Assembly (NCBI GenBank): GCA_030704615.1
Contig: CM060734.1
Coordinates: 54,002,001-54,066,000, forward strand
Reading direction: 5' to 3'
Source of the DNA: Takakia lepidozioides
Lineage: Eukaryota; Plantae; Bryophyta
Length of the DNA stretch: 64,000 nucleotides
In this document: positions 2,823 to 44,583 of the stretch, piece after piece
How the letters are laid out: every line of letters starts with the position of its first letter
Numbering within the stretch: the stretch's first letter is position 1
Program-made: the position numbers and the translations under genes
Notes under the pieces: generated by a model
What the model was told of the DNA's origin: nothing
Databases searched by the model: none
The model's input: the letters and a program-made list of their open reading frames with translations, nothing else

Positions 2823-4712
2823 AGCTGGCATCAGTTTTTTAAAGATCCTTCACGATGGTGGGACAACCGCAATCGCAAGGTGTGGCTATTTCAAATGTGG
2901 GCTCTTGGCTCCTGTTAGTACCATAATTTGGTTTCTTCCTGATGTTTACAAGGTTCTTCTTGGGAGAGTCAGCTTGGTCTTAGCAGGCCGTGTTTCAATC
3001 TCTGCCTGCTCAGCTGCACCGTGGTGGTTCTCACAGACCAATCCGACATTACCTGACTACAGACACAAGCAGCACACACAAGAGGTCCTTTTGGGTTGAT
3101 GGTCGGTCAAATCCTCCATGGGTCATGACACAAGGTGAAGGACAATGTGGTGAGGGCACCTTCTTCTTCGACCTATTTTTTTTGCCCTCTCATCAGACTC
3201 GGCCCTGAATTTGCATATTGAATTCTGTAAGTTAGCTCGTTGGGTGGATCTGTGGTGGTTTGGAGTGACTTTGACAATTTGCTGCCGATGTGGCAGCAGG
3301 AAAGTGTCCAAAAACAGATAACACATATGAGGAGAAGCTTTGGAATGAACACTTTTCCGACCCCAGTCAATGGTGGACAATGGAGACAAAAGGTGAATGC
3401 CTGTTGGAAGCAGACGCAAGTCAGCATAGGACCTAGTGTGATGAGTATGGTTGGGATGTTTGCTGGAAGAATTCTAGGCTGTCATTGTCAGTTGCTAGCA
3501 GCAAGGCAAGGATGTATGCATGATTTGTGCAGAGGCATGGATAGCTGAAGGAGGAGGGATAGAGTGTGGGTCCAGATTCATCCAAGAGGGCCAGATTTCA
3601 AACTCCAGATTACCTATGATTCCCTGTGGAAGGAAAGCTACAAGAAACCTGCATGGGTAGATGGTCAACTGGAAGCCGCAGCAGCAGCGGCACAAGTGAT
3701 AAAATCAGGCACTGCTAATGAAGGCACCTTTTTCAACACATTTCACCCTGTTTTCCCCTCTTATCAGAACTGGCCCTAAATTTCCATGTTGAATTCTGCA
3801 AGTTAGCTGGTTGAGTGAATGTAGTTTGGAGTGACTTTGACATGATACTGCCAATGTGACAACAGGAAAGTATCCAGAAACAGGTAACAGAGACGAGGAG
3901 AAGCTGTGGAATGAACACTTTTCTGACCCCAGTCAATGGTGGGACAATCAAGGCAAAAAGGTGAATGCCTGTTGGATTACAGAGAGTAGCAGACACAATT
4001 GAGCATAGGAACTAGTGTGATAAGTTGAGTTGGGTGTTTCCTAGAACTGTCATTGTCAGCTGCTAGCAGCAATGAATGCATGATTGTGCAGAGTCATGGA
4101 TAGCTGAAGGAGCAGGGATAGAGTGTGGGTCCAGATTCATGCAAAAGGGCCAGATTTCAAGCACAAGATTACCTATGATTCCCTGTGGAAGGATAGCTAC
4201 AAAAAACCTGCATGGGTAGATGGTCAACTGGAAGCCGCAGCAGCAGCGGCACAATTGATAAAATCAGGCACTGCTAGTGAAGGCACCTTCTTCAACACAT
4301 TTCACCCTGTTTTTCTCTCTTATCAGAACCGGCCCTAAATTTCTATGTTGAATTCTGCAAGTTAGCCGGTTGAGTGAATGTAGTTTGGAGTGACTTTGAC
4401 ATGATACTTCCAATGTGACAACAGGAATGTATCGAAAAACAGGGAACAGAGATGAGGCGAAGCTGCGGAATGAATACTTTACTGACCCCAGTCAATGGTG
4501 GGACAACCGAGGCCAAAAGGTGAATGCCTGTTGGATTACAGAGAGTAGCAGACGCAATTGAGCATAGGAACTAGTGTGATAAGCTGAGTTTGGTGTTTCC
4601 TAGAACAAATCTAGGTTGTGATTGTCAGCTGCTAGCAGCAAGGCAAGGATGAATGCATGATTTGTGCAGAGGCATGGATAGCTGAAGGAGCAGGGATAGA
4701 GTGTGGGTCCAG
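2823..4712 (+). CDS. Upstream exons of PPR copy 2 encoding tandem OSB-type PDF motifs (spliced; some degenerate)
   Basis: AG/GT-bounded half-exons, e.g. 4425-4519 (GMYRKTGNRDEAKLRNEYFTDPSQWWDNRGQK|gt), splice in phase to ag|[11 protein letters not shown] at 4713. The unit repeats about every 560-580 bp (3299/3576, 3866/4135, 4425/4713), with a diverged first unit at 2823/3036. Confidence 0.65.
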
Positions 4713-6695
4713 ATTCATCCAAAAGGGCCAGATTTCAAGCACAAGATTACCTATGATTCCCTGTGGATCAATAGCTACAAGAAACCTGCATGGGTAGATG
4801 GTCAACTGAAGGCAGCAGCTGCAGCAGCACAGTTGATAAAATCAGGCACCTCAACCATGAGCACAGCTTCTGGAAGAGGATCAAGAGAGGGAGTCCACAA
4901 TGCCTCTTCTGGCACTTCTGGGCATGTGAAGATGCTTTGTGAGGCAGGCAGACTGAAAGAGGCTCTACAGACTTTAAACCAAGGAGGCATTTCAGCAGAT
5001 TCAGATACGTATGTCAGTCTCTTGCATAAGTGCATCAAGGTGAAAGGCCTGGAAGCTGGAAAGCAGGTGCACACTCACATTATCCAAAGTGGATTCATGC
5101 CAAATGTTTTTCTACTCAACACCCTTGTCAACATGTATGTTAAGTGCGGGAGCATCATGGATGCTCATCAAGTGTTCAACAGAATGCCTCAACGATCTCT
5201 GATCACGTGGAATATAATGTTGGCAGGATTTACCAAGCATGGGTGTGGTAGGAATGCTTTGGAGACCTATGAGCAAATGATGGGGGAAGGGGTGAAGCCC
5301 GACCAGATCACGTTTGTGTGCGTTTGCAATGCATGTGCAAGCCTGGGAGCCCTGGAAAAGGGCAAAGAGGTCCATGGCGACATCGTCAAAGCTGGAATTG
5401 TACCAAATGTGATTCTGAACAATACCCTCGTGGACATGTATGCCAAATGTGGGTGCATCGAGGATGCAAAGGGAGTGTTCGACACTATGGCTGAACGAAA
5501 TAAGGTGTCGTGGAGTGCGATGATTGCAGGATATGCACAGCAACGGCGCGGGATGGAGGCTTTGGAGACGTATGAGCAAATGATAGGGGAAGGGGTGAAG
5601 CCCGACCACATCACGTTTGTGTGCGTTTGCAGTGCGTGTGCAAGCCTGGCAGCCCTGGAAAAGGGCAAAGAGGTGCATGGCGACATCCTCAATGCTGCAA
5701 TTATACCAAATGTCATCCTGAACACTGCCCTGGTGGACATGTATGCGAAATGTGGGAGCATGGAGGATGCGAAGGGAGTGTTCAACAATATGGCTGAACG
5801 GAATGTGGTGTCGTGGAGTGCGATGATTGCAGGGTATGCACAGCAGGGGCGCGGGATGGAGGCTTTGGAGACGTATGAGCAAATGATGGGGGAAGGGGTG
5901 AAGCCCGACCGCATCACGTTTGTGTGCGTTTGCAGTGCGTGTGCAAGCCTGGCAGCCCTGGAAAAGGGCAAAGAGGTGCATGGTTGCATCGCCAAAGCTG
6001 GAATTGTACCAGATGTCATTCTGAACAATACCCTCGTGGACATGTATGCCAAATGTGGGTGCATCGAGGATGCAAAGGGAGTGTTTGACAATATGGCTGA
6101 ACGAAATGTGGTGTCGTGGAACGCGATGATCGCAGGATATGCACAGCATGGTTGTCATAGGGAGGTCGTGCATCTATTTGAAGATATGCAAAAGAACGGC
6201 TTGAAGCCGAACAGTATCACCTTTATATGTGTTCTCTCTGCATGCAGCCACGCTGGCCTACTGAATGAAGGAAGACGCTACTTTGATTCCCTGAGTCAAG
6301 ATCATGGTGTCACTCCGACAGTAAAGCACTTTGGCTGCATGGTGGACCTTCTTGGACGTGCGGGACAACTGGATGAGGCAGTGGACCTGATCAATAAAAT
6401 GCCAATCAATCCAGATGTTCTGATGTGGAAGACCTTGCTTGGTGCCTGCAGAATCCATGGCAATGTGGAGATGGCTGAATGTGTGGCAACATCTATCCTC
6501 AAGTGGGATGAACAGGATGCCGCGACTTATGTGTTGCTCTCAAACATCTACGCTGCAGCTGGCAGGTGGGATGATACTGCAAAGGTGAGAAGAATGATGA
6601 AGGTCAGAGGGGTTAGAAAGGAGCCAGGTCGCTGCTGCATTGAGGTTGGCAAGAGGGTGCACACCTTTGTTGTAAGGAAATCCATGCTGAGCTGA
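4713..6695 (+). CDS. PLS-class pentatricopeptide repeat protein (C-to-U editing factor type), main exon of copy 2; frameshifted just after the PG box
   Basis: L-S-P triplets ([32 protein letters not shown]), P2-L2-S2, E motifs ([26 protein letters not shown]) and PG box KEPGRCCIE. Confidence 0.92.
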
Positions 6696-7006
6696 GAAGA
6701 TTGTCTGGGCAGATGAAGGAGGTGGGGTATGTGCCTGACACTCGCTTTGTATTGCATGATGTGGGGGAGGAGGAAAAGGAATTTTCTCTTTGCCACCACA
6801 GTGAGAAGCTGGCCATTGGTTTTGGGCTGATCAGCACGACCCCTAGGACGCCTCTGCGTCTCATCAAGAACCTTCGAGTGTGTGGTGACTGCCACACCTC
6901 CACCAAATTCATCTCAAAGATTGTTGGCCGAGCAATTGTTGTACGGGACGCTAACCGCTTTCACCACTTTGAAGATGGGATTTGTTCTTGTGGGGATTAC
7001 TGGTGA
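6675..7006 (+). pseudogene. DYW cytidine-deaminase domain of copy 2, out of frame with the PPR tract
   Basis: HSEKLA (HxE), CGDCH (CxxC), terminal CSCGDYW*. Detached by a 25-bp deletion relative to copy 3 (25135-25159). Confidence 0.9.
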
Positions 7007-7675
7007 AAGGATGTTTTGTTGGAAAGTTGCGAGTGTCCTACTTCATTCATTGATCTGTGTAGCTACTCAGATCATCCACCATTTCCTGAGAGTATTGACC
7101 ATGATGTACTGTTAAGTGCATTTCCTGTGGCATATCCACGGGAAATGATAGTGGGGTCTACCCGGCATAGTTTGGAAAGTCAGCCCATAATTACACTTGA
7201 CTGAAGGGGTGACATTGGACTGACTTTGGTGACAGTGGATGGAAATCAGAGTGCTGTCCTAATTCTGGGTTTGGTTGGTGGAGCTTCTCCAAAGCTTGAA
7301 GATGGAAGTGAATACAAATTTTGATGAGCTTGATTAGCCCTGTGCACAAGTTTGTTCAGCATCTTAAATTTGGACATGTTTGTTTGTTTCTTGTGGTGTG
7401 GCTTTGGATGGAGCCCTTGACGAACTTGCATAATAATGTCAAAAGCTAGCTTTAACCCACCAAGATCCAATCCCATGGTGGCTGCTTGAAAGTTCAAGTA
7501 GTGATTGTAAGGGTATTTGGGTATGTTGTTATTGATCGATTCGGCTTGACTCCCTCACACTATAACATCGGTTTGTGCATGTTGGAGTTCAAGGTTGGGG
7601 CACAGAGGCCACCCACTTCAGAACACAATGGCTACAGTTGGAGACCAGATTTGGGAGCATGTATGAAACAACCTT

Positions 7676-8220
7676 TAAACCCTAAACCTTAACCCTGGAT
7701 CATAAACCCCAAACCCCAATCGGGGTCAATGAAGAAGAGGTGGAGTGGATAAAACGTGAGTGACATGGTGAAGGTCAATGAGGGATTATTTATGAAGAAG
7801 AGATGAAAAAACCGAGCTCCGTCGTGAAGCTGAAGGAAACTTGTAACTTTGATGAAGAGGTGAAATAAAAGTGGAAGTGTCATTGTGAAGCTTAATGAGG
7901 GTTCAATTTTGAAGAAGAGGTGAGAAAAAAAGGAGGGACATGGTGAAGGTCAGCGAGGGTTCAATTTCGAATTGAATTTCGAATCAGAGGTGACAAAACT
8001 GGAGCGACAAAGATGGCCAACAAGGCTTCGATTTCGAAGAAGAGGTGAAAAAACTGGAGTGTGAGATGGTGAAGCTCAACGAGGATTAACAAATGAACAT
8101 ATGTTTCCAGAACTCTTCTACTGTGCCATCTCCTATGTCGAGGCCCAAGTGCGACCTCTAGTGTAGCTTATGCCGTCGGCCAGAGGTGAGAAAAAAGCTG
8201 TTGCGACATCTTGAAGGTCA
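7676..8220. repeat. Degenerate telomere-like motifs followed by an imperfect ~60-bp tandem repeat
   Basis: taaaccctaaaccttaaccc, then recurring gaagaagaggtga...gtgaag(g/c)tcaa..gaggg units. Confidence 0.6.
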
Positions 8221-8239
8221 ATGTTTCTCAGGGAATTAA

Positions 8240-8993
8240 CCCTTAACTTCCTCGCGACCCGTTTCAGGTTGCACTGTTTGAATGAACCATCCTAACTTAT
8301 GCAGATGAAGTTTTTTTACATTCATTCAATCTGAGCATGCCATTTGGAGCAGGCATGCGACCTCCAGATTTTTCTCAAGGGACGAGATCAGAAAATTTTT
8401 GGTTGGAGGGGCCATTGAAGCATATTAGGTTAGGGATGCCAGAACTGTTTGATGCTACTAGACGCATTTGAAATTCGGTTTTCACTGATAGATCCTATTG
8501 AATTTTTCCTAGTGTAAGACGACCTCTCGAGTCTCACCGCAGGGATTTGTGTAATTATGGTTTTTGGGACAACATGTTTTGGAGGAAAGCTTCAGGCTTG
8601 AGGGGTGAACATGTCAACCCTCACCAAAACACATACAAAGCAGCCTATGCAGTAAAATTTTGGTTTGATATGAAATTTGGAATGCACTTTGCATTTGTAC
8701 TATGCTGGGGTAGCCCTTTTGGAAAATTTCAAAAGCGCCTTAACATGTATGGTCAATGCAAATAAAGGATTTTTTCAGACCCAAAAAAAAGAAAACGTCT
8801 CCAAAAAAACATTATAATCTCTCAAACTCAACGGTGATCCTAAGATTTGGGGAGATGGTGTAAAGGTCATGTAGGTATGTATGTGTATGGTCAATTTTTG
8901 TGGATGAATGCTGGTAGGTGGGTAGCCTCCCGTTAGTTCTAAGGGGTAGTAGTTTTGGGGAGTGAAAAAATTCACCTTGTAGGAAGTTAAGGG
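8240..8993. mobile_element. Non-autonomous piggyBac-like MITE (754 bp)
   Basis: Perfect 13-bp TIR CCCTTAACTTCCT / AGGAAGTTAAGGG, flanked by TTAA (8236-8239 and 8994-8997). Confidence 0.8.
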
Positions 8994-9238: not shown

Positions 9239-9571
9239 TTGGAATTCTTCGAATCTTTCGAATCCGCAAGAATTCTTCATGCTCGGGTGACAGGAACTAT
9301 GGTAGTTCCTTCACCTGGTTATGGTCGGGTGTATACCTTGGTCATTTGTGGGTCTGTTGTACATGACATGGTATATCAAGTGACGGTGGGGAATTTTTTA
9401 GATTGTGCTTGCCCCAATTTTGTGTGCATGCGTGAGGGCAGTCTTGGGAAGAGAGGGAAATGGAGCCTCTGCAAACATCTTTACTACATCTACTTGCGTA
9501 GGATGTTTTGTGACCCCCAATTCATTCACCAGCTGACACTTGGTGACAGCGAAGTGTACACTCTTTTGTAG
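9239..9571 (+). pseudogene. SWIM zinc-finger C-terminal fragment of a MULE-like transposase
   Basis: YQVTVGNFLDCACPNF...CKHLYYIY matches the SWIM CxC-xn-CxH signature. Confidence 0.7.
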
Positions 9572-10612
9572 CGTGACACTGGCATTTCTGAGTAGTGTGG
9601 CCTATGATGTAATTGAAGCCATGTCACTACAGCTTCAAAAGATTGAATCTTGTCGTAGATATTCAGTAAGACTATGCTTACCCTTAACATTTTGTTGTGT
9701 CATTCGCCCTCACCTTTGTCGGCGGAGTACAAATGAACCTTGAGCAATGCAGATTTCTGTCTTTCAAGAAAATGCATGAAATAGTTCAGCTGTCCTTGTA
9801 TCGCGCGCTTCTTTGTCCACAGTCCCTCCATCACGTGCTCATGTGTCCCGTTTCTAGCACCAATGGCATGGCTGTAGACTGCGTCTTCCTGCCCATGCGT
9901 AACTACTTCCACAGTAATAGGACCTCCTCGTGATGTTCCTTGTTAGAGGGCCTGCTTCTCCCTCTTCTAAGCCCTGCGCTCACACTTAGTGGGCAAACCG
10001 TGAGCCCAGCTCGAAGGCTCACGGGGTTGGGTGTGACTCACACCGTAGCGTCACTCACCCCAACATTCATCATACTCCATTCAAAGCTGAAAAAAAAAAC
10101 CAGACTGAGTGCAACATACAAAAGGTAAAAAAAAAAATTGTAATCACAAAGCCGATATGCTCAATCTTTTGCGCCTCTCCACATCAATGATCCAACCGCA
10201 AAAATGAAACCCCTCCCATAGCAAATACAACATGGCGCACCCTAACGCCATAACTGCTACCTCGAAACACTCCCCTCTAAGTATTGTTCGCAATCGCAGT
10301 ATTGCTCCGCACGTTACTGTGACCGGTATGGCATCAGTTTGGGTATGTTTGGAACCCTAAGTTCTACACACGCCCAGGGTATAGGCTGCATGACACACCA
10401 GCCGGGGTGGTTTTGGCATACCCTTACCTATACTTTGCACATACCCCGCCTGACTGGCACAGACCAGCACAACATTGGTTAGTACATATTTTAGTGGGCT
10501 CTACACACGCAGGGCCCCAAATAACCTGCAAACACGAACCAAGATGGATCATTAATAGAACAACTAGCTGAGATGAATCAAGCCCCCTAGGGATAAAACT
10601 GCAAGTTCGTGT

Positions 10613-13600
10613 TCAAAATAATTGATGGTTCCGAATTTCCACCTCTGTCTTGGCATCACCCTTGCAGAAAATAACAAGGCATCCGTCGTCCTTCAGTAGG
10701 GATGCTGCCAGTGCGAGTGCATGCGGGACGGTATCCTTTGACTTTGCATTCCAAACGGGCACAATGTCATCTATGCCACATCCTCTGGTAGACTGCCCAT
10801 CTGGGAGATCCACCATTACAAGGTCTGCCCCCGCTTTAGGGACTGTGCCACCCCTACGCAATGGCTCGGGGGAGCGGTGCCTCTCCAGAATCGTCGATAT
10901 CTCCCCTAGGCTCTGGCCACTTACTCGTTGTTCCTTTGGATGCAAGCCTGCGGATGACCAGCTGGAACCAATCGCACTTGAGGCATGCTACGTCTGTGTT
11001 TGGTAGCCCTTCTCACAAAGAGATAGCCTCGTAAAGCAGCACGGTTGAGAGCTGCATGCCCCTACCGTCACTTGTGTTTGCCCAAGCAGGATTTCGAGAA
11101 GATCGATTCCTTCGCTCAATCTAGAAGTTGTGTAGGGGGTCTGTAAACGCCAGTTGGTTGTCTACCCTCTGAGCACCATCTATCTCATCCACACCCTCCA
11201 CACCTTGATTGCCTGTAGGCCTTGTGCCGGGGGGGGTTGCCTGCCCTATGGTGGGTGTCTTCTTCGGTTTCTGTTTCCTTTTCCTTGGTTTCTTCTTGGC
11301 CACCGCTTCTTCCAGAGCTGTATTCGCTTGTTGCAGGTGTGCGGCAGTGACAACTGCAGCCTCCTCGGCACCCTCTTCCGTCAATGGCTCCATGTGAGTT
11401 GGTGCAGCCAGTTCGTTCTTGGTGTACTTCTTATACACTTCCAGTTCAACGTCAGGAATGATATCGGTGGGCAAATCTAGCCACCAATAGCAAGGCAGAT
11501 GCGTGACTTTAGCGTACTCGCCCAACTGCCTGCCGTTGTACATTATGCAGTCGGATCGGAGGCTGGCCCACTGTGTGACACTAGCGGGAATACACCTGAT
11601 ATGCTTGTTGGCGAGCAAATAAAAGTTTATGTACCTGTTGCAGTGCACGAAAAGTCGACGTCAGGACAGACATTGGCCTGATAGTAATGAGAAGTGTAGG
11701 ATATAAAACCGAACCTTTTGGTCTCTCACCAGATGTAGTAGTCGGCAGCGACTATGACACCAAATAGTTCGATGGCAGTGTCATAGTCGGTGACGACTGC
11801 AACTCCTAACTGTGGGTTAGCCAGCCACCCAGCTGGGCGATACCGGAATAAGGGTGTACATTATATGACATGGATTCAAAGGACCCACCACAGAGTCGTT
11901 GCCGACTATGGAATTGAGTTAGTTTTTAATTTGCGGGCTAAAGTCACGCCCTTCTTGCAATAGTCGACAGCGACTATGATTCCATAAAGGGCAAAACATG
12001 TGTCATAGTCGCTGAAGACTATGACCAGGCCAACTTTGGGTACGACAGGGCCGGCTTTCTATAGTCGTTGCCGACTATACCCAATGGATACCCTATACCC
12101 AATGGCTACCCTATATTGAATTGAGTTGGTTTTTAATTTGCGGGTAGTACTCACGGCCCATGTCGGCAGCGACTATGAACCAATAAGGGGCACAACCCGT
12201 GTCATAGTCGGTGGCGACTATGACCAGGCCAACTTTGGCTACGAGAGGGCCGGCTTACTATAGTTGTTGCCGTCTATACCCAACGGCTACCCTATATAAA
12301 ATTGAGTTTGTTTTGAATTTGCGGGCAGTAGTCACGGCCCTCTTGCAATAGTCGGCAGCGACTATGCACTCCTAAGGGGCAAAACCTGTGTCATAGTCGG
12401 TGGCGACTATGACCAGGCCAATTTGGATACGACAGGGCCGGCTTGGTATAGTCGTTGCCGACTATACCCAATGGCTACCCTTTACCCAATACCCTATACC
12501 CTACCCTATACCCAATGGCGCCTTCTTTTAGTCGTTGCCGACTATGAGTACAATGTCTGAGCCCAGTAGTCGGCGCCAACCACGAGCAACAACACTACTG
12601 TCGACTACCGGAATGTTTGCCGACTACAACGAGCCTACATATTCTTTTTCGACCGCTACTTCCCACACCCATTTTGCTGTATGGCATATGCGGAGGGTGG
12701 GTGAATTGCATTGACAATTATGTACCTGTACAGGAGCTTGCGAGCTGGTAAGTTCCACCAGGCTGCTCAGTAATTGGTCAACTGCGGGCAGACCCATCCT
12801 TCATCTCGCACCAGAATAGCTCCTTCCAGAACTTGAGGCGGAAATCGTCCACCCAGACAGAGAGGGTCTTCAGAGTGGGAGCCTCTTCCTGGGTTGGCAG
12901 CTGCAGGAACCCTTTCTCAACCAGCATGGCCAACTGCCGCTCTGCTTCCTCCGTTTGCTGCGAGTCCACCACGTCAATTGTTAGAGATGAGAAATTGCAA
13001 CAAATAACTGTAACATGAAGCCACCACCAGTATTGCCAACATCTTACTTGGAACCACCATGTCATTTTGTCGCACCACAAGCCAAACACCACATCTGTGG
13101 GAGCATGGGGGAATTTTCCATTTTTGCGGGTTGTGGAGTCAGAATTCCACAGCTTCAACCATAAAATCTTCTCCTTCGGGCTGACCTCGTTCGTGGCAAG
13201 CATCTGCAACTTCTCGAGAGTCATTTCCGGCTTCTGATTGATGGCAAGAGACTTGTAATGCGTGGTTATCTAAAAAATAAAGCCAGTTCCGAGTGCAGGA
13301 CCGCATATGGAAGAATATTTTGTGATTTTGGTGTACCACTTCGTCCTGTGCACTTGGAAATGGCTTGCCAGTTTCTTCCGGATGAGGTCGGTGTTCTCAG
13401 CGGTGGCAGGTAGGTGGGCATGGCATCCAAGCAGGCGTTTCTAATTCTACGGAATCCCTCCTGACCCATATACTCTATTAGGGCGTCCCGCGACATTGTC
13501 ATCAAGTTCCCATCCCGCTTGTTCAAGCACTTCTCGTAGACGTCCGCTGGAAGAGCTGATTGGTACTGCTCAACAGGTGTAGTTGCGCACTTCTGGAAGA

Positions 13601-14927
13601 AGAATAGCTTGTGCGGAAGCTCGTTGGACACATTTCCACAATCTATCACGCTGCAAAACGCACAGAACAAGACCTTTATGTGACCATGGACCTTATTGAA
13701 ATTCGTGAAAAAAAATACTACCTACAAAACTCAGCAGGGATTTTAGGGTTTAGGTTGGGCTCCATGGGATAGTCGGCGCAGACCATACTTTTAGCGAGGC
13801 GGTTGTCAATGGAGGCATTGTGGGAATCTTCTCTGAACTCCCTCCCACCAGACAATACTTCCCACTCCATCTCACACTACACGTCTAATTAATGAATTGG
13901 TCCACGAAGCACCCACTGGGACTGCTTATGCAAGACTTGCAACCCCATGCAAACGACATCCCCGAATTGCTAAACCCTATACTTATGCTCATGTGAGCAG
14001 AAGAGGAGATAAAAACTCACACATTCATAGGATTCATTGCATACCGTATAAGGCCCAGATCGGAACTCTTCACATCCATAATCTTGGCGTTCATCCGGTA
14101 GTGCCAGCTCGCCTCGTCTGTGTGCTGCTCACGTATGACCTCCATCCAAGCATACCACCTGTGATTCCCGTCGTAGATGTGCAGCCATTTGTTGGAGAGA
14201 AACTCACACTCCGTGTTCTTTATGTCTTCCTCAAATGCAGCATCCGCTGCCTGCCAATGTTCAGACCATGCATCCCAACTCCTTGTTGGATTTCTTGGCT
14301 CTGTCCACTGTCGTCGTTGATGGAAAGTAGTAGTGATGCAAGTGCATCATTGTACCTGTCCGCTTCAAAATACAACTTGAGCTTGTTGATGCCTGGGCGC
14401 TCAGCCATGCGCACAGCCGGGAGGGGCTGCATCCTGCATAATGGTATCCTTGGCGGAGCACCATTCCGCAGCAAGTGCAAAATAGAACTCATTGTGTGGC
14501 TCATGGCACTTGTAGTGAGTGAGAGTAGGGTTTGCTTCCGCATGTCGCCAGTCAAAACAACGTCCGCCAGAACATTGTCTTGCACACTTGGAGCATTTTG
14601 AACAGGTCCGCCACCCTGTGCGCTCGTTGCTGGACCTGGCGATGCAGCGCTTCGAAAAACAGGGGAGAGGGGAGGACGATCCATCGATGGTGTGGCCGAT
14701 GTAGACACCAAACCGCCTTCCTGTGAAGTCGTTGATTTCTTATGAAGTTTCACTAATTTTGTGGGAGGTCTAGCACCCTCGCTGCTCTGTTGGGAGACCA
14801 CCGTCCGCCTGCGCAGTATGCGTGTTTGCGTGGGCAGCACAAACTCCCCCTCTTCCTCCACTTGAGGCTCCATGACGACAACGTTCCCCTGCTCAAAAAT
14901 AGAAAGTGAAGCCGAAGAGTCAGGCAC
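10613..14927 (-). pseudogene. Degenerate multi-exon gene: ParB/Srx-like domain, then N-terminal half of a beta-class amino (N4C/N6A) DNA methyltransferase-like domain
   Basis: IPLCRMQP...WSEHW...LHIYDGNHRWYAW (DGNHR at 14172-14158, after a frameshift near 14300). Downstream ADLVMVDLPDG...ASLLKDDGCLVIFC (10830-10660). Intervening ORF pieces are separated by AT-rich or repeat-filled putative introns. Confidence 0.55.
11740..12660. repeat. Array of TAGTCG-N4-CGACTA palindromes within a ~190-bp tandem unit
   Basis: Many copies, e.g. tagtcggcagcgacta, tagtcggtggcgacta, tagtcgttgccgacta. The larger unit starting ttgagtt.gtttttaatttgcggg recurs at ~11913, ~12121 and ~12302. Confidence 0.8.
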
Positions 14928-17030
14928 CGCAGAGGAGAATCCGCATGACCGTATGCACTGCCGAACCCGGAAAGGGATCAGAACCCGTCCTACGCGGGCT
15001 GTAACGTATGCCTACGAAATTGAGGTAGTGCCACGCAGCCGGCTACACGCCGTAACCGGACTATGTGCCACGTGGCCCGCGCCAAAATTCAAATAGCAAT
15101 AACGGATGAAAAATCGAATCCCCCATCCATGGAAGCACGCCATCCGTTGTCATCCAATGTGGATGTTAAATGTGCGTCGAATTAACTCCATCCAAACCTA
15201 CATCAGAAATATGAGATGGCTGCCACATCCCCAAAATTGAGAAATAGCCTCCTGCCACTCCGCTAGACGACTCAGTAACTTCCGACACGTGGCCTGGACT
15301 CCATCCAAATAGTTTAGGATGAGAAATATAAGAGGAATGAATGGTAAAACTTATGTTCAATCGAACGCTGTCAATGTCAATATCCGCGAATCTCTTCTGG
15401 GTGCAATGGGGGTCCGGGTTTGCAGAACGTCATCTTAAATGGTATAATCAACTTCTAATATCTGAACTCCATATCGGAACTTCATATCCCCGAATCTTAA
15501 TATCCTCTACAGGCTCGTGGAAGTTTCTGGAGGAGCAGAAATTATGAGTCACATAGCGCATATTCCGGATGTGAATGACTAAATCTAATTTGCAAATTAA
15601 AGAGTCTTTGTCTTGAAATATCACGGATTTTGACATAGCCAATAATATCACCTCAATCACATGGTTTGTGGTATGGGAATGGAGGGATTGTGGGGAGGGG
15701 TTTTGGATCAGGGTCGGGTTGGGGAACTTGAGAGATTTGTCTCTCCGTTGTAGCTCGTTGGGTGGGAGATGCGGAGTGGTCCAGATGGCAGGGCATGCTC
15801 TTGTGGGTGGTAATGTGGGAACATTGTGTGTGGCTTTAGAACCAGGCTAATGAACTGATGGCATGAAATGTGCATTGTAGAGTTGATGAAGCGGAATCTT
15901 CTTTAGGAATGACGGACTTCTGATAAACAGTGAGTATGCCAGCATCACAGGCTGAGTGTTCATGCTCTTGCTACACCTCCAGTGTGATTGAATTTTTTCC
16001 AACAGAGGATTATTTCTCCCGTGTGTATGGCATGATGGTTTAGTGTGTTACATGGTTTGTCCATCTGTCTTGCATAAGTTGATTTGCTTGCTTGCCCTTG
16101 CAGTGTAATGGATGCCTATGCCTATCCCTGAAGAGGTGAATTGGCAACCACACAGTCGGGAAATGCCATCCGCAAGAATTGGTCGGCACCGACCATACAC
16201 TATAATGCCTTTGAAGTGGATGTGTTCACTGTCTTTAACTCTGTAAATTTCCACGAATTTCAATAATTCCATAAGGTTGGTGTCGACTTGGATATCATCG
16301 ACTGCCTCCATGCGGCGCAAACCGCCACAACATCCGCCAAGCACATTTGTCGGCGCCGACTACACCCTCACAATGCGGGAAATGGTTTTAATTTCAACCG
16401 AGTATCTGAAGGTCGGTCGTGACTACAAGCACATTTAAGCCAAAAACTCTATTGGAAGGCAAATTTGTGCGTTCGTACGGAAGTCGGCAGCGACTACAAT
16501 GCATTAATGGAAAGCGCTTGTCGATTTAAGCAATAGTCGCTGCCGACTATTCCGTTTGCAGGCCAATTTGCCAAAAAAAGCCACATGAAATGAACATCTT
16601 TAGCGACCTTGGCAGATCTGTTGACCGACTTCAACAAAAACTGGTATAGTCACCAACGATTACTCCGATTCGTCTTCCAATTCAATGTAAATCTGCCTGA
16701 TCCGTCGCTGGAATTAATTTGAACTTTATGAAGTCGGTACCGACTACGGAAGAAAACCTGTCCCACTAACTATTTCACAATGTTCATGCCTTTCAAATAG
16801 GCGTGGTCGGCAATGACAATAAGGCATCCCCCTGTGGCGTAGAACAAATTCAGATAAAGAGGAGGTTAATGGTTGTTTCGAAATGGCCGTTGCCAGCTGA
16901 ACGTGCCGCCGCCAGTTGTTGCGCAGACGATTTTCATCCGACCTAAAATCCATTAAATATTCCTTTTGCATTTAATTTTTACCGTTGTTGACGTACAGTT
17001 CGTTAGGAAATCGTAAATTGCGTTGTATGC

Positions 17031-17520
17031 TTGCAACAGGTCATGTGCTCCTCATCTGCCCCAGTGCTCACACGCTGTGTAGATTCGGCAGAGTACTCCA
17101 GTTTGCAACTGTCGACCACTCGTGAGCATCCTACTCTGGCTTCCGTCCGTGGTGCTAATGTGGTGAAAACTGACAGCATTGAGCTCTCTAGTGGCGACAG
17201 CGATGAATGTGTGGTTAATAGATCCAGTAGTGGAAGGCGGGAGAGCACTCCGGGAAAATCTGCTTCATCTCCACAGAAATTGCGGCGAGGGGAGTTTATG
17301 GGCAACAACGTTAAATTCGCACAGCCCGCTCAATCTATACTGGATGTGTTGAAGCTTCTGCACCTAGACTCCAAATCGTAGCTTGGAAGGATAAATTTTG
17401 AAAATTTTGAAGCAAGGAAGGTGAGATGCTTGCCGAGGATCGCTGACGGTGATGTTTTGTATGAGCTGCCACCCACATCGAACACATCTCCAGCTGGGCA
17501 GCTTGAGGGCATGGACCGCA
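17031..17520 (+). pseudogene. Probable N-terminal fragment of a MULE/SWIM-family transposase
   Basis: Protein-like reading through one stop (SILDVLKLL...KVRCLPRIADGDVLYELPP...LEGMD); preceded by the same TAGTCG palindromes at 16350-16830. Confidence 0.4.
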
Positions 17521-17913
17521 GTCGTTGCAGACTATACGGTACTAATACCCCGTGGGTTCAAATGTTATGCAATGAAAGGACCATGTACGGATGGCGGGTG
17601 CAATAGTCGTTGCAGACTATATGGTTTAACTTCATATCATGTCAGTTCTGCATATTCGGGAATGTATAAAAGCGTCGAGTGGAAACCGTTCTTTTTAAAC
17701 TTATGACGTGCTCATGTGAGCGGAGGATCACACTTGGTAGAAATATAGCCTAACGAATGCATCACGTTCCAGAGATGTAATGCTCTGGTCAGTGCCGACT
17801 AAGACATTACGTTCACTCACGTGAGCGGCATCACCGAAGTGCATATTCAGTGTTTATAGAAACTGAAGACTTACATTGCGAACATATGCTCCCAATTGGT
17901 AGTATCGGTATGT

Positions 17914-18335
17914 TCACCACGACAGCCAGCTTTCCAGCGCAGGAATGTCATTGTCTCGCACGGCACCGGAGGAGGACCACCAGGCAGGGATCGCCACAAA
18001 TGAAACCTCTGCTTCCGCCTCAGAACTTGCTGCTCTCCATTTCATACACAGCTGTATATGTGCTTTTTGAAGGTCCTGCAATATATATTTTTTCGTCCAT
18101 TTGTCCAGGCTCTGGCCCCAATGGAAGCCATATGTCCTTTCTCGATCGGGCATAGGTTCTCTCTGCCATACACCATACGCACAGCAGCCCAGTTGGCATT
18201 TGCATTGTCGGCCATGAATCCTCGGAATTGTGGTTGGCCCTTCCCTGCTCTTCGCATCTGATCGTTGATGCACTCCCACATAATCACTTGTGATGTTGTA
18301 TCCTCTGATTTCATTTCACAGATTGCAATTGTCAT
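17914..18335 (-). pseudogene. MULE-like DDE transposase core fragment
   Basis: IAICEMKSED...FRGFMADNANANWAAVRMVYG...ERTYGFHWGQSLDK. The FMAD and degenerate CxFH motifs resemble a MULE core; frameshifted. Confidence 0.6.
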
Positions 18336-20410
18336 TTAGGGGTTGGTCCTTTGGAACAGACAGGTTCATTTCTCTTTCAGGAGAAGACCACTGACAGATA
18401 TGAACTGGAGTGAACTGCCCAGCAGAGATAGTCACTGGATTCAATGATTCCACCACTAGAAAGTTTGATAGCTCAATTTTGTTTAGAACTATACCCTTAA
18501 AGTGGATGGGCCATGCTTCAGTGATGTATATAACCTGATGAAGGGCTGTTGAGCAAGTGACCCAGCAACCAGGGCAAGCTTGCTGAGGACTTGCCGAGAG
18601 AGTTTGAATCCAGCTGTTAGGAATATTTTGAATCAATTGGTGGTAGCCTGACGTCCCTCTTTGAGTACCAACTATTGGAATTATTTGGTACAAAGGTAGA
18701 AAATCTCGACCGCCCCAAATGTCTTTGATTTGGGCTATGTTCAATTTATCCCAGGCAGAGAATTTTGCAGCAGAGGCTCTGTCTGCAGCGGAAGGGTTGT
18801 TGCAATTGAGGGTAAGGGATTGGCGCATGGTTTCCTCATATGATTTTGGGTCCTCTTTAACCAACCTGGGCCGAATGGTTCTCCAGACATCCCATATGGC
18901 TCTCCATAAAGGGGAACCATTAGATTTGTGTCTAAAACCCTGTGTGATCCATCGGAGAGATGGGCTCCATATTTTAGTTTTGAGGGGGGGACTTTTGAGA
19001 ATGTGCTGATAAACAAGATGCTTCCACCATCCACCTTCAGGCCCTAATAGCCTTACTATCCATTTACCCAAGAGTGCTGATATTTGTGTTCCTGGATCAA
19101 TGATCCCCAAACCACCTTTCTTTTTTGGCAGGCAAATCTGTGCCTAAGAGACAGCTGGTCTAGGGCTTCTGGCATCTGAATCTGCGCCCCATATGAAGTT
19201 TCGGATGGTTTTTTGGATCTGTTTGATCTGTGGAGCTGAGGGGCTCCAGACCGCAGCAAAGTACCATATGCTGGCCAGAAGAATCTGGTTGGCTACAAGA
19301 GCCCTTCCAGTAATTGAAAGATGACGGGAACCCCAATAAACTAGCTTCTTTTTTAGCCTGACTATGACATGGCCCAACCTCTGGTCGTCCGAAAGGTTAA
19401 TCCCAAATGGGTGCCCAAGCAGGGTAGTAACATTCCCTTGTTGCAGCCATTTGAGCCCCAAATTCCCTCCCCAATTAGAGCTGAACCCAGCAGGAATGGT
19501 GGCTGTGTCTCCAGCAAGGATGACAACTGTTTTTGTCCAATTAACTTTAAAACCAGAGGCTTCACAAAAGGTAGTGAGAGATTCAGTTGCCTCCTACAGG
19601 TTGGCATCCGTGGCCTGAAGGTATAAAACCGTGTCGTCTACAAACATTGAGTCTTTGATCTGGAGGTCAATGTTGGCTTGGGTTTTGATTTGGAGCCCAG
19701 TTATATTTGGGTTGTTGTCCAAGAGATATCCAAGAGAGTCTGCCACTATGAGGAAGAGGAATGGGGCCAGCGGGCATCCTTGACGAACTGATCTTTGGAG
19801 GTCAAATTTTTTAGAGATGAATCTATTCAGTGAAACCCTATTGGATGCGTTGAGGAGGAGTATTTCGACTCAACGACAAAAGTCGTTCAAGAGTCCTGTT
19901 TTTTGGAGAGTCGCAAACAACATTGGCCATTCAACCTTATCAAACGCTTTTTCAAAGTCTAAAAGCATGGCTATGTGTTGCCCAGTGGATTCTGCATAGA
20001 TTGGGGTCTCTTGTGCAAACAGATTATTGTCAAGGATATATCTTCCCTTGACGAATCCAGCTTGACCAGGCCTAATGATGGTTGGAAGGAGAGGCTGTAG
20101 ACGAAGGGCTAATGCCTTTGCAATGATCTTGTATGAAACATTGAGCAATGTTATGGGCCTATAGTTTGAGATCTGCTTTCTATCTCCTTTTTTGAAGAGA
20201 AGAGTGATAATTCCCTGAGCCATTTGTCTTCGCATAGATCCTTTTCTTTTGATCTCATTTGCCATTGCACAGAAGTCCTTGGATAATACCTGCCAGAGGG
20301 AGCTGTAAAATTCCATAGGCATACCGTCTATGCCCGTAGATTTTCGTTTGGACATAAGTTTCAAGGCTTTCGAGAGCTCAGTTTCAGTGAATTCTCCATC
20401 CAGAGAGGCT
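18336..20410 (-). mobile_element. Degenerate L1/Tx1-type LINE, ORF2 reverse-transcriptase fragment
   Basis: GIDGMPMEFY, NYRPITLLNVSYKI, QAGFVKGR, LDFEKAFDKV, VRQGCPLAPFLF, FVDDT, GGLGIID-like segment; has stops and frameshifts. Confidence 0.9.
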
Positions 20411-20689
20411 GCGCCTTATTTTATATTTATGTGTTCATCAAATATTGACATTATACATACTAAATTAACTATAATATGAACACACTACAATTATATTTCT
20501 ATATTTTTCATATAATTAAGATATTGTGCATTTAAAACGCTATTAATTTAAAATAAGAGGCATTAATATGTACATACAAAACCAAAAAACATAGACGCTT
20601 ACCACATACACGTACTATACGTGCAAGATAGTCCCTATATGGCAATAGGCCTATATCTTCTATAAGTTGCCTCAGATTGAGCCATGTAC

Positions 20690-20956: not shown

Positions 20957-23900
20957 ATGGTAAAAGACTCTGGCTGCTCAGCGCCATCTTCCCTGGTCGT
21001 TTTCAGAGACTACTCTACAATCTCCAGACTGCAAACATAAGCCGGGTTAGCATCTGTGTAAGTCTGGAAATGTTCGTTGTTCCTCATCGTCTAGAGCCCA
21101 ATGGAGCCCAAAACAAGTTGCATGAATGTTGTTGAAAGCTCACTAGCACCCCTCAGTAAAGGACCTTGTCAAAGTGTTGATGCTGTCGGATTTTCGAGCA
21201 CAAACCTCTACCTTGGAGCACGGAGCAGAGCTGGCATGAGTTTTTTAAAGATCCTTCACGATGGTGGGACAACCGCAATCGCAAGGTCTGGCTTTTTCTT
21301 AATGTACGATATGAAGAAGTTTGTCCATCCTGCAAATGTGGGCTCTTGGCTCCTGTTAGTACCATGATTTGGTATTCTTCCTGATGTTTACAAGGTTCTT
21401 GGGAGAGTCAGCTTGGTCTTAGCAGGCCGTGTTTCAATCTCTGCCTGCTCAGCTGCACCGTGGCGGTTCTCACAGACCAATCCGCCATAACCTGACTACG
21501 GACACAAGCAGCACACACAAGAGGTCCTTTTGGGTTGATGGTCGGTCAAATCCTCCATGGGTCATGACACAAGGTGAAGGACACATGTGGTGAGGCACCT
21601 CTCTTCGACCTATTTTTTGCCCTCTCATCAGACTCGGCCCTGAATTTGCAATTGAATTCTGTCAGTTTAGCTCGTGGGTGATTGTGGTGTTTGGAGTGAC
21701 TTTGACAAGTGGCTGCCGAGTGTGGCAGACAGGAAAGTGTCCTAAAAGAGATTAACCACATATGAGGAGAAGCTTTGGAAGTGAACACTTTTCCGACCCA
21801 TTCATGTGGGACAATGGAGAACAAAGGTGAATGCCTGTTGGAAGCAGACGCAAGTCAGCATCAGGACCTAGTGTGATAAGTATGGTTGGGATGTTGCTGA
21901 AGAATTCTAGGCTGTCATTGTCAGTTGCTAGCAGCAAGGCAAGAATGTATGCATGATTTGTGCAGAGGCATGGATAGCTGAAGGAGCAGGGATAGAGTGT
22001 GGGTCCAGATTCATCCAAGAGGGCCAGATTTCAAGCACAAGATTACCTATGATTCCCTGTGGATCAATAGCTACAAGAAACCTGCATGGGTAGATGGTCA
22101 ACTGGAAGCCGCAGCAGCAGCGGCACAATTGATAAAATCAGGCACTGCTAGTGACCTTCTACAACACATTTCACCCTGTTTTTCTCTCTTATCAGAACCG
22201 GCCCTAAATTTCTATGTTGAATTCTGCAAGTTAGCTGGTTGAGTGAATGTAGTTTGGAGTGACTTTGACATGATACTTCCAATGTGACAACAGGAATGTA
22301 TCGAAAAACAGGGAACAGAGATGAGGCGAAGCTGCGGAATGAATACTTTACTGACCCCAGTCAATGGTGGGACAACCGAGGCCAAAAGGTGAATGCCTGT
22401 TGGATTACAGAGAGTAGCAGACGCAATTGAGCATAGGAACTAGTGTGATAAGTTGAGTTGGGTGTTTCCTAGAACAATCTAGGCTGTCATTGTCAGCTGC
22501 TAGCAGCAAGGCAAGGATGAATGCATGATTTGTGCAGAGGCATGGATAGCTGAAGCAGCAGGGGTAGAGTGGGGGTCCAGATTCATCCAAGAGGGCCAGA
22601 TTTCAAGCACAAGATTACCTATGATGCCCTGTGGATCAATAGCTACAAGAAACCTGCATGGGTAGATGGTCAACTGAAGGCAGCAGCTGCAGCGGCACAG
22701 TTGATAAAATCAGGCACCTCAACCATGAGCACAGCTTCTGGAAGAGGATCAAGAGAGGGAGTCCACAATGCCTCTTCTGGCACTTCTGGGCATGTGAAGA
22801 TGCTTTGTGAGGCAGGCAGACTGAAAGAGGCTCTACAGACTTTAAACCAAGGAGGCACTTCAGCAGATTCAGATACGTATGTCAGTCTCTGCATAAGTGC
22901 ATCAAGATGAAAGGGCCTGGAAGCTGGAAAGCAGGTGCACATCACATTATCCAAAGTGGATTCACGCCAAATGTTTTCTACTCAACACCCTTGTCAACAT
23001 GTATGTTAAGTGCGGGAGCATCATGGATGCTCACCAAGTGTTCAACAGAATGCCTCAACGATCTTTGATCACGTGGAATATAATGATGGCAGGATTTACC
23101 AAGCATGGGTGTGGTAGGAATGCTTTGGAGACCTATGAGCAAATGATGCGCGAAGGGTGTGAAGCCAAACCACATCACGTTTGTGTGGTTGCAATGCGTG
23201 TGCAAGCCTGGGAGCCCTGGAAAAGGGGAAACAGGTCCATGGTGACATCGTCAAAGCTGGAATTGTAACAGATGTCATTCTGAACAATACCCTCGTGGAT
23301 ATGTATGCCAAATGTGGGTGCATCGAGGATGCAAAGGGAGTGTTCGACACAATGGCTGAACGAGATGTGGTGTCGTGGAGTGCGATGATTGCAGGATATG
23401 CACGCAAGGCGTGGGATGGAAGCTTTGGAGACCTATGAGAAATGATGGGGGAAGGGATGAAGCCCGACCACATCACGTTTGTGTGCGTTTGCAATGCGTG
23501 TGCAAGCCTGGCAGCCCTGGAAAAGGGCAAAGAGGTGCATGGCGACATCGTCAAAGCTGCAATTGTACCAAATGTCATCCTGAACACTGCCCTGGTGGAC
23601 ATGTATGCCAAATGTGGGAGCATGGAGGATGCGAAGGGAGTGTTCAATAATATGGCTGCACGAAATGTGGTGTCATGGAGTGCGATGATTGCAGGGTATG
23701 CACAGCAGGGGCGCGGGATGGAGGCTTTGGAGACGTATGAGCAAATGATGGGGGAAGGGTGAAGCCCAACCACATCACGTTTGTGTGCGTTTGCAGTGCA
23801 TGTGCAAGCCTGGGAGCCCTGGAAAAGGGCAAAGAGGTGCATGGTTGCATCGCGAAAGCTGGAATTGTACCAGATGTGATTCTGAACAATACCCTCGTGG

Positions 23901-25496
23901 ACATGTATGCCAAATGTGGGAGCATGGAGGATGCGGAGGGAGTGTTCAACAATATGGCTGAACGAGATGTGGTGTCGTGGAGTGCGATGATTGCAGGATA
24001 TGCACAGCAGGGGCGCGGGATGGAGGCTTTGGAGACGTATGAGCAAATGATGGGGGAAGGGGTGAAGCCCGACCACATCACGTTTGTGTCCGTTTGCAAT
24101 GCTTGTGCAAGCCTGGCAGCCCTGGAAAAGGGCAAAGAGGTGCATGGTGACATCGTCAATGCTGCAATTGTACCAAATGTCATCCTGAACACTACCCTGG
24201 TGGACATGTATGCGAAATGTGGGAGCATGGAGGATGCGAAGGGAGTGTTCAACAATATGGCTGAACGAAATGTGGTGTCGTGGAGTGCGATGATTGCAGG
24301 GTATGCACAGCAGGGGCGCGGGATGGAGGCTTTGGAGACGTATGAGCAAATGATGGGGGAAGGGGTGAGCCCGACCGCATCACGTTTGTGTGCGTTTGCA
24401 GTGCATGTGCAAGCCTGGCAGCCCTGGAAAAGGGCAAAGAGGTGCATGGTTGCATCGCGAAAGCTGGAATTGTACCAGATGTGATTCTGAACAATACCCT
24501 CGTGGACATGTATGCCAAATGTGGGTGCATCGAGGATGCAAAGGGAGTGTTTGACAATATGGCTGAACGAAATGTGGTGTCGTGGAACGCAATGATCGCA
24601 GGATATGCACAGCATGGTTTTCATAGGGAGGTTGTGCAACTATTTGAGGAATGCAAAGAACGGCTTGAAGCCGGACAGTATCACCTTTATATGTGTTCTC
24701 TCTGCATGCAGCCACGCTGGCCTACTGAATGAAGGAAGACGCTACTTTGATTCCCTGAGTCACGATCATGGTGTCACTCCGACAGTAAAGCACTTTGGCT
24801 GCATGGTGGACCTTCTTGGACGTGCGGGACAACTGGATGAGGCAGTGGACCTGATCAATAAAATGCCAATCAATCAGATGCTGTGGTGTGGAAGGCCTGC
24901 TTGGTGCCTGCAGAATCCATGGCAATGTGGAGATGGCTGAACATGCGGCAACATCTATCCTCAAGTGGGATGAACAGGATGCTGCGACTTATGTGTTGCT
25001 CTCAAACATCTATGCTGCAGCTGGCAGGTGGGATGATACTGCAAAGGTGAGAAGAATGATGAAGGTCAGAGGGGTTAGAAAGGAGCCAGGTCACTGCTGC
25101 ATTGAGTTGGCAAGAGGTGCACACCTTCGTTGTAGATGACAAGTTGCATCCCAGAATTAAGGAAATCCATGCTGAGCTGAAGCTGAGAAGGTTGTCTGGG
25201 CAGATGAAGGAGGCGGGGTATGTGCCTGACACGCGCTTGTATTGCATGATGTGGGGGAGGAGGAAAAGGAATTTTCTCTTTGCCACCACAGTGAGAAGCT
25301 GGCCATTGGTTTTGGGCTGATCAGCACGACCCCTAGGACGCCTCTGCGTCTCATCAAGAATCTTCGAGTGTGTGGTGACTGCCACACCTCCACCAAATTC
25401 ATCTCCAAGATTGTTGGCCGAGCAATTGTTGTACGGGACGCTAACCGCTTTCACCACTTTGAAGATGGGATTTGTTCCTGTGGGGATTACTGGTGA
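20957..25496 (+). pseudogene. PDF-motif/PLS-PPR-E-DYW gene copy 3 (many 1-2 bp indels: pseudogene or unpolished assembly)
   Basis: Same upstream PDF exons; main exon from ~22581; six S-type MY(A/V)KCG motifs; E motifs, KEPGHCCIE, HSEKLA, CGDCH, DYW*. Confidence 0.88.
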
Positions 25497-27229: not shown

Positions 27230-27537
27230 AGGGGCATGGACGCCAATTTCAACTTGCGGAGATAGCTTCAAAGCTTGACACCAACCACAACAACGTCACT
27301 GAGGATGTGGTCAGAAACATGGTCAGGGAGGATAGACTCCACAAACGACAAGATGGCACCTTCTTCTGTGGGGCACGTGAGAGAAGCCCCAGGTTCATGC
27401 AAACCTTCATTGAGATGTGTTCACTAGAAGGGGGAACAGTAGTCGATCTGACAGCGGGATGTGGGTCCTCCATGGTGGCTGCAACAATTTGCGGAAGGTA
27501 TCTGTTTGCCTTGGAAGGGGACGACGAGCTACTGTGA
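27230..27537 (+). pseudogene. C-terminal SAM-binding half of a beta-class N4C/N6A DNA methyltransferase-like domain
   Basis: GARERSPRFMQTFIEMCSLEGGTVVDLTAGCGSSMVAATICGRYLFALEGD fits the family pattern KP..L...I...S..GD.VLDPF.GSGTT..AA...GR..IG.E. Flanked by TAGTCG palindromes (26830-27070, 28770-28930). Confidence 0.7.
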
Positions 27538-36943: not shown

Positions 36944-36945
36944 TT

Positions 36946-36957
36946 TGGTATCAGAGC
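36946..36957 (+). promoter_or_regulatory. Primer-binding site for tRNA-iMet
   Basis: TGGTATCAGAGC, 2 nt after the LTR. Confidence 0.95.
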
Positions 36958-36998
36958 TTAGAGTTCAGTACGCGATCGTCCTTGGGATTGGCCTCATC

Positions 36999-44579: not shown

Positions 44580-44583
44580 ATAG

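Follow-up and report, generated by a model that had tools for sequence, protein, structure and literature searches.

A 64,000-nucleotide stretch of the genome of the bryophyte Takakia lepidozioides (contig CM060734.1, positions 54,002,001 to 54,066,000; the whole of this stretch is called the window below) carries a decayed copy of a gene whose protein is predicted to combine a ParB/Srx-fold domain with a beta-class amino-methyltransferase (MTase) fold, and 30 copies of a palindrome lie in or beside this ParB-MTase gene and nowhere else in the 64 kb. The gene likely travels as an accessory gene of a Mutator-like DNA transposon, and the palindrome core, which is common to distant families, is a candidate binding site of the encoded protein. 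An original prediction, made from the letters of the window alone, had placed an intron-containing gene with a ParB-like and an amino-MTase-like part at 10613-14927. The minus strand does contain both peptides on which it relied: WSEHWQ...YDGNHRWYAW falls in the open frame 14017-14346, ADLVMVDLPDG...LLKDDGCLVIFC in 10613-10987, and the distance between them is about 3.3 kb, as had been claimed. The gene itself is real and its proposed extent has to be redrawn: it starts at 14873 (minus strand), is broken at 10631 instead of ending at 10613, and has its remainder on the plus strand, at 26588-28324. The prediction had overlooked the S-adenosylmethionine (SAM)-binding half, which lies 16 kb away, the apparent inversion, the decay of this copy to a pseudogene, the palindrome arrays and the algal precedent.

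Splice sites and the exon ends of homologues point to six exons that total about 1,250 codons; the introns are of the GT-AG type and the phases agree. Predicted exon 1 (14021-14873, minus) comprises a low-complexity N-terminus and then the ParB/Srx-fold domain (about 14023-14450, DGNHR at about 14170), with a frameshift near 14276. Exon 2 (13048-13650, minus) encodes a conserved helical central domain to which fold comparisons gave no assignment; it has a frameshift near 13421 and a stop at 13266-13268. The frame of exon 3 (12726-12957, minus; stop at 12778-12780, probable frameshift near 12752) was deduced from the LLYR/LFYR exon end in relatives. The 5' part of exon 4 (10631-11634, minus) contains a CYWW segment, a basic run resembling a nuclear localization signal (KKKPRKRKQKPKK) and the catalytic half of the MTase fold, whose motif IV, DLPD, lies at 10799-10810; its lesions are stops at 11121-11123 and 11013-11015 and a frameshift near 10890. 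The catalytic half stops at 10631 (minus) and the SAM-binding half resumes at 26588-27534 (plus), beginning with the 3' part of exon 4 (KVIKRKWTCLNRLPL, 26588-26678, plus), which has a TAA at its end followed by a GTAAG donor. Exon 5 (27200-27659, plus) holds RERSP (27376), VVDLTAGCGSS (27439-27471) and ALEGD, with a probable frameshift near 27233 and a stop at 27535, and exon 6 (27781-28324, plus), assigned provisionally from splice sites and phase, would encode an acidic low-complexity C-terminus. Two sequencing runs guessed to be RNA gave no usable splice joints among the matches listed, a result that bears neither way on expression. Telomere-like CCCTAAA short repeats occur at the end of the last exon (28310-28325, plus) and in intron 1 (13745-13760, minus).

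DNA contigs of the species explain the separation of the two halves. On 10250-11200 they show two reciprocal loose ends, at 10630 and 10631. Contigs of the catalytic exon depart from the window at 10630 into sequence that matches the window only from 26588 onward, and contigs from the other side of the break run into the reverse complement of 26587 backward. The breakpoints are thus at 10630-10631 on the left and, by the reciprocal contig junctions, at 26587-26588 on the right; in the other copies the catalytic exon has GPAGP-KVIKRKWTCLN as its continuation. From these junctions the segment 10631-26587 appears to be inverted in the window relative to other copies, with the loss of about 7 bases, either in the genome or through an assembly error. 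The join of the two gene halves is independently supported because all 30 palindromes fall in or beside them. An earlier assignment of 27200-27534 to a sister element was dropped, as the loose ends at the junction join 26588 onward to the catalytic exon. The stretches 10261-10630 and 25540-26587, which are joined in other copies, are part of another repeat or of the far end of the element.

The ParB part was recognized through its homologues. A read-through of the frame 12727-14346 matched 155 proteins at E<=0.001 among 1.84 billion, either in the ParB exon or in the domain that follows (150 of the 155 are listed). Three Adiantum proteins (P0059, P0065, P0155) carry both the ParB and the MTase motif in a single chain, as had been proposed for the gene; with these three and the 155 matches the two motifs are more than chance. 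All homologues with organism names are from Adiantum ferns except one short record labeled as bacterial (P0179, Enterobacter cloacae complex), which stems from a 463-bp contig with an intron-like end and is probably plant contamination of a bacterial assembly. A model of the homologue P0012 built from a 42-row alignment reached a predicted local distance difference test (pLDDT) score of 87.5. Compared with 48,161 chains, its top eight matches all belonged to the ParB/Srx superfamily (Z 7.7-5.4; next unrelated chain Z 3.4): KorB (Z 7.7, root-mean-square deviation (rmsd) 2.4, 92 residues aligned), PadC (7.6), Srx (6.9), SerK, pNOB8 ParB, SbnI, Srx and Atu1540. Foldseek likewise ranked Noc, ParB and Srx first, but with E>=0.013. 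A conserved G-x-x-R signature has an established role in the ParB/Srx superfamily; in the alignment, GNHR is conserved as G in 42/42, N in 40/42, H in 38/42 and R in 34/42 rows, and an upstream Arg is kept in 23 of the 25 rows that cover its position. The uniform top matches together with the invariant G-N-H-R predict a ParB/Srx fold, modeled on a homologue and not on the split sequence of the window. When longer proteins were searched by word index for the ParB piece, nine candidates came up, none of which scored, and a caspase-3 match of the ParB profile among PDB sequences was rejected as chance.

The MTase part is predicted with the help of P0151, a homologue that contains both halves and whose model has a mean pLDDT of 58.5, mostly 70-92 across the MTase core. 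Residues 343-615 resemble M.BceJIV (Z 14.5, rmsd 4.2, 208 aligned); the first ten rows are all bacterial amino-MTases, and CcrM and M.MboIIA (both Z 14.4), M1.HpyAVI, PvuII and N4CMT (Z 11.8) are among the matches. The best Foldseek E was 1.5e-6. Motif IV precedes motif I, a permuted order that is found in P0151, in the window when read across the junction, and in 21/25 related loci. Taken together, these matches predict a beta-class amino-MTase fold. In the catalytic half of the window, D, P, G, W, D and G line up with the family. The SAM half of the window matches P0151 (E=2e-7) and PHROG 67 (E=8.8e-5), and it matches positions 165-210 of PF01555 at E=0.011, which fails the curated cut-off; among phages it found 52 records, and all 15 of the 15 listed are DNA methylases. 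The SAM motif VVDLTAGCGSS and the acidic ALEGD are kept in the window and are more eroded in many relatives. Alignment to phage MTases with hhalign gave a probability of 94.6 for the first and a weak 22.7 for the second, and P0065 470-605 gave lead-level MTase matches with scores of at most 0.82. Matches of the catalytic half to WD40 repeats among PDB sequences were rejected as chance. Hence both folds of the original prediction are borne out by structure comparison of homologue models (P0012, P0151), whereas at the sequence level Pfam, ParBc and N6_N4_Mtase included, returned no family for either quoted piece.

Motif IV is conserved only in part. DLPD in the window departs from (D/N/S)PP(Y/F/W), and most fern-type relatives have DLPF. 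Position 4 is F or Y in 22 of the 29 database relatives that have the motif, a set drawn from a search seeded with DLPF sequences, and is aromatic in 1 of 13 readable related loci, which are decayed copies. The explanation of DLPD as a private mutation of DLPY is unsupported, since the sole listed variant of these codons among the other copies is synonymous. In N4CMT the Tyr at position 4 has been modeled as stacking on the target base (PMC10406627). Because the motif of the window lacks an aromatic residue at this position, catalysis by the DLPD subfamily is doubtful, and the DLPF relatives appear to be better candidates for active writers. A tree of a 72-column catalytic piece put the window next to the DLPF sequences with no starred support, and no clade order is concluded; it left out P0152, P0153, P0156, P0157, P0160, P0163, P0166, P0170-P0173, P0176-P0183 and loci without a readable motif.

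The ParB exon was found in 234 loci on metagenome contigs, and the 80 retrieved of these form 44 clusters at 95% identity; the contigs contain introns. Of 25 non-redundant representatives with 3.5 kb downstream, 21 have both MTase halves after the ParB exon and 23 at least one, such that the two parts co-occur in one gene in relatives as well. A transposase-like gene corresponding to 17872-18335 of the window is present in 5 of 21 representatives with 6 kb upstream, always divergent; to this extent the claim that the MTase gene is the second gene of a plant DNA transposon held, in some related loci. In the window the middle exon of this transposase (17872-18335, minus; GFMADN...GFHW...WLSW) is frameshifted and contains one stop, and a zinc-finger exon of SWIM type (CxC...CKH; 9257-9568, plus) of the same transposase family is not contiguous with it. 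The remnant of a long interspersed nuclear element (LINE) reverse transcriptase (18316-20415, minus; RVT_1 E=1.7e-15) abuts the transposase piece and cuts it. The order of the transposase pieces is that of L024 and L065. We tentatively take the transposase to be of the Mutator superfamily from its motifs, read by eye; no Pfam MULE or SWIM match was obtained for the transposase pieces of the window and the relatives. An N-terminal Cys/His region of the transposase in L039 (922-1587, minus) and L024 (4266-4811, minus), also without a Pfam match, looks by eye like a GCM-type DNA-binding domain. Elsewhere the searches found little: viral contigs gave one weak locus from 18 pattern matches and none from 60, prokaryotic genomes one weak 25-residue match from 10, neither weak locus matching any piece of the window, and the phage collection one weak match for the ParB exon. 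Three matches of the transposase piece in a plasmid collection were rejected as chance.

The palindromes provide the link between the gene and a possible target. In the window, 30 sites differ by at most two mismatches from TAGTCG-N4-CGACTA, as against 0-2 in ten simulated windows. Fourteen lie in intron 3 (11739-12582, partly within a 199-bp tandem repeat), one in intron 1, nine upstream (16180-17801), four in intron 4 (26871-27068) and two downstream, past the stop (28772-28849). A search for repeated palindromes in the relatives recovered the core again, flanked differently, for example as ACTT-TCGGCACCGA-AAGT and AT-TCGGCGCCGA-AT, and at least four perfect copies of some palindrome occur in 7/35 loci vs 1/32 far flanks. 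Queried with the core of the window, the 237 kb near the gene gave 85 matches and the 160 kb of distant flank 17-18; 150 shuffled cores gave 28 on average and at most 82. In relatives the matches are densest, with about 10 per 10 kb, at a distance of 0.5-1.5 kb upstream from the ParB motif, and at least two core matches are present in 11/30 loci vs 1/66 control windows when an upstream window picked after viewing this histogram is used. The 4-bp flanks, which were not used in selecting the matches, are perfectly self-complementary at 19/85 sites vs 26/4,400 random places. The clusters of loci are related to one another and hence not fully independent. These observations make the palindrome a candidate binding site of the ParB-MTase protein. 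Some loci carry other palindromes or none. Different arrays were seen in L015 (5593-6132, AATGGCCATT nine times), L059 (9405-9600, TGAAGAAC-N4-GTTCTTCA) and L024 (7416-8235, AAGTT-N5-AACTT), which suggests site switching in some families. The observed/expected ratio of CpG is 0.86-0.90 in the palindrome regions and 0.84 in a young long terminal repeat (LTR) element and is uninformative.

In the model that we favor, and to which we give an even chance, the ParB-MTase protein recognizes the palindromes of its own element as ParB does parS and thereby shields the element from silencing, comparable to the action of VANC proteins via intronic and upstream motifs (PMC5735166). Precedents are also seen in the ParB+MTase gene of Ectocarpus Sola1-1 and in the inverted repeats next to Bostrychia PAG3. 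A protein dimer would bind TAGTCG-N4-CGACTA, a nucleotide at the GNHR site would lead to loading or spreading, and the MTase-fold module would in this way be brought onto the DNA of the element. In the DLPD subfamily the aromatic residue of motif IV is lost while the SAM motif is kept, and binding of SAM and DNA with scarcely any or no methyl transfer is therefore the more probable role of the module. Each functional step is inferred and the folds are predicted on homologues.

Several points weigh against this model. Palindrome binding and enzyme activity of the protein are predictions, and the transposase could bind the palindromes instead. The ParB match is middling (Z <8, best Foldseek E=0.013) and, like the MTase fold (whole-model pLDDT 58.5), comes from a homologue; sequence profiles miss the ParB part, both with Pfam on the window pieces and in 40 ParB/central homologues, which gave no ParB family, and its match to a ParB-like PHROG has E=0.089. 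Fold comparisons of the homologue models identified no helix-turn-helix for DNA recognition. The transposase adjoins the gene in only 5/21 loci, where it is divergent, and that of the window is on the same strand and in pieces; in the rearranged window no terminal inverted repeats or target duplication (8-11 bp) were found. The near/far ratio of the core, 3.4, is surpassed by at least one shuffled core (maximum 4.2), the upstream window was a post hoc choice, and it contains at most one core match in 19 of 30 loci.

A broader version of the model is offered tentatively, as less probable than its core. It envisages a widespread, transposon-borne ParB-parS-like system in non-seed land plants, in which a nucleotide-gated clamp would load at TCGGYRCCGA in the promoter and introns and spread an MTase module that either writes N4-methylcytosine (4mC) or N6-methyladenine (6mA), in the DLPF clade, or shields without catalysis, in the DLPD/DVPR clade; anti-silencing would then be of bacterial derivation.

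The alternative that fares best, unlikely as it is, assumes an active, site-targeted amino-MTase which, loaded at the palindromes, deposits 4mC or 6mA on its own element and so blocks or redirects the 5-methylcytosine of the host. In its favor, the beta-class fold is complete, DLTAGCGSS and ALEGD of the window copy follow DPFGGSGS/AIELD of the phage enzymes, motif IV retains its Asp and its second Pro, position 4 is F/Y in the 22 of 29 database relatives mentioned above, and the core contains two CpGs. Arguing against it are the Asp at position 4 in the window, where N4CMT has its stacking Tyr (PMC10406627) and where 1 of the 13 readable related loci is aromatic, and C-to-T and G-to-A decay at the CpGs of the palindromes in many relatives, so that the palindromes had no lasting protection.

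Clamps of the ParB type bridge and condense DNA, and the protein might instead be a structural helper of transposition that pairs or compacts a long element via its internal palindromes and has no role in anti-silencing. The distribution of sites upstream of, in two introns of and downstream of the gene would suit this function, as would a degenerate motif IV in the lineage and the lack of terminal inverted repeats in the window. We consider it improbable: the MTase fold and the SAM motif are retained across lineages, and a regulatory role would agree with the position of the site maximum in the relatives, which lies between the two divergent genes at 0.5-2 kb upstream of the ParB motif.

Quite improbable, too, is a reading in which the palindromes serve the transposase as binding sites, or are hairpin repeats, and in which the ParB-MTase gene, unrelated to them, is cargo that acts on another target. 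Mutator transposases reportedly have DNA-binding domains of their own, transposase-like genes adjoin the gene in the five loci, and many loci are without clear arrays. However, in the window and in L008, L022, L063 and L082 arrays lie within the introns of the gene, away from any transposase, and L024, which does bear the transposase, has a different palindrome and no core match in the upstream window.

Judged from its five frameshifts and six in-frame stops, the window copy is a pseudogene, of a family that is live or recently live. Other copies are free of the lesions at 14276, 13421, 10890, 11015 and 11123 (the remaining lesions are outside the contig-covered stretches or the contigs listed), with one extra base each at 14276 and 13421. 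Contigs of <90 to >99% identity stack on the region, and their summed depth, although not a copy count, is many times the depth of individual contigs whose sequence equals the flanks; the family is therefore multi-copy. Of 10 variants listed for the catalytic exon in other copies, 7 are synonymous, which points to selection. The least probable alternative takes the locus to be truly intact and explains the inversion and part of the lesions by errors of assembly. It draws on the many sites at which all contigs depart from the window while neighboring flanks agree with it exactly, on a duplicated pentatricopeptide repeat (PPR) gene inside the inverted block that is likewise full of one-base deletions, and on the contigs listed, none of which spans 10630/10631 in the arrangement of the window, but it conflicts with stops that are mostly C-to-T or G-to-A, the type of change that methylated DNA undergoes, with several amino-acid-changing transversions and about 7 bases missing at the junction, and with sequencing runs that are not known to stem from the assembled individual.

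The remainder of the window contains PPR genes with E and DYW-type tails and LINE and LTR remnants, a content that marks it as land-plant DNA. One PPR gene with an E motif and a DYW-type tail, preceded by a frame change, is at 4686-7006 (plus), its tandem duplicate with many one-base deletions at 22554-25300 (plus), and a further inverted partial copy at 1-746. Two LTR retrotransposons (36221-43211, plus; 44582-56728, minus) have terminal repeats that are 97-100% identical, and the second carries a 1.4-kb CACAGCCC tandem array at 53395-54894. A very high-copy repeat at 7000-8400, with a summed contig depth 10-100x that of the element, lies just to the left of the 3' piece of the transposase. 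Upstream of the ParB-MTase gene, 15588-16015 is matched at about 95% identity by contigs from both guessed-RNA runs and has no open reading frame or family. Open frames of 118-197 codons at 30642-31568 and 33458-34048 (both minus), without a Pfam match at the cut-off, are possibly host or cargo exons.

The architecture of a ParB-like domain joined to an MTase is already known from algal transposons; what is new is its range in land plants, a non-aromatic motif IV and a conserved candidate site. No published gene of this kind in land plants and no report of the palindromes was found in the top-ranked matches of a literature search that was largely without subscription journals. Two algal genome papers, in the parts consulted, proposed that ParB-methylase proteins of transposons bind and mark their own DNA, without a test there. 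With the present data the architecture is seen in land plants too, in which the ParB-MTase gene escapes standard domain searches, and since the core of the candidate site is common to distant families, a single protein and a single 16-bp oligonucleotide would suffice for a test of the idea. If it is correct, recognition of the ParB-parS type would operate in the chromatin of plants, and the gene might be an additional source of 4mC or 6mA there.

The comparison with known systems is based on parts of the publications cited. VANC of the Arabidopsis VANDAL elements exerts anti-silencing via short motifs, amplified in tandem repeats, in introns and upstream regions (PMC5735166). It resembles the plant ParB-MTase in being an element-encoded protein with short target motifs in such regions; it differs in its domains (DUF1985, DUF287) and in targets that vary between families, whereas the plant core is common to distant families. 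The function of VANC has been demonstrated, that of ParB-MTase is inferred. Marchantia DN4MT1 and bdelloid N4CMT are, like the MTase part of the plant gene, bacterial-type beta-class amino-MTases in eukaryotes, but they are host genes with SPPY and proven 4mC activity (bioRxiv 10.1101/2021.02.12.428880, PMC8885841, PMC10406627), in contrast to a multi-copy, transposon-linked gene without SPPY. The word ParB is absent from the text, as far as available, of bioRxiv 10.1101/2021.02.12.428880 and PMC8885841.

Phages have ParB-N6_N4_Mtase fusions at ParB-terminase loci (PMC4738411). The two domain types are the same, and the SAM half of the window matches phage DNA methylases; the plant gene differs in its introns, in a large helical insert between the domains and in DLPD/DLPF instead of DPPY, and it has no close relative in the phage, viral or prokaryotic collections. 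For green algae, Iyer 2011 is said to be the reference cited. In the red alga Bostrychia, Plavaka elements encode PAG2 and PAG3, which include a PF01555 methylase and a ParB-like protein, and tandem inverted repeats beside the ParB gene were proposed as binding sites (bioRxiv 10.1101/2025.02.11.637652). Methylase and ParB domains, in the window likely transposon-borne as well, and arrays of inverted repeats next to the ParB gene (PAG3) are shared with the window; unlike in the window, ParB is fused to a 2-oxoglutarate oxygenase and the methylase to SET, in separate genes, and the elements are EnSpm/Plavaka of red algae. The most similar arrangement is that of Sola1-1_Ec32 of the brown alga Ectocarpus, in which a gene for a ParB-like plus N4/N6 DNA MTase protein of 1,104 amino acids lies opposite to the transposase (PMC12477816). 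No binding site is named in the available text of that paper, and the comparison is one of descriptions, not of sequences, between a Sola-1 transposase in a brown alga and a Mutator-like transposase in a land plant. In both, one gene of about 1,100-1,250 codons unites the two domains, within a DNA transposon in Ectocarpus and likely so in the plant, and the accessory gene of Sola1-1_Ec32, proposed to bind and modify its own element, is opposite to the transposase as it is in the five related plant loci.

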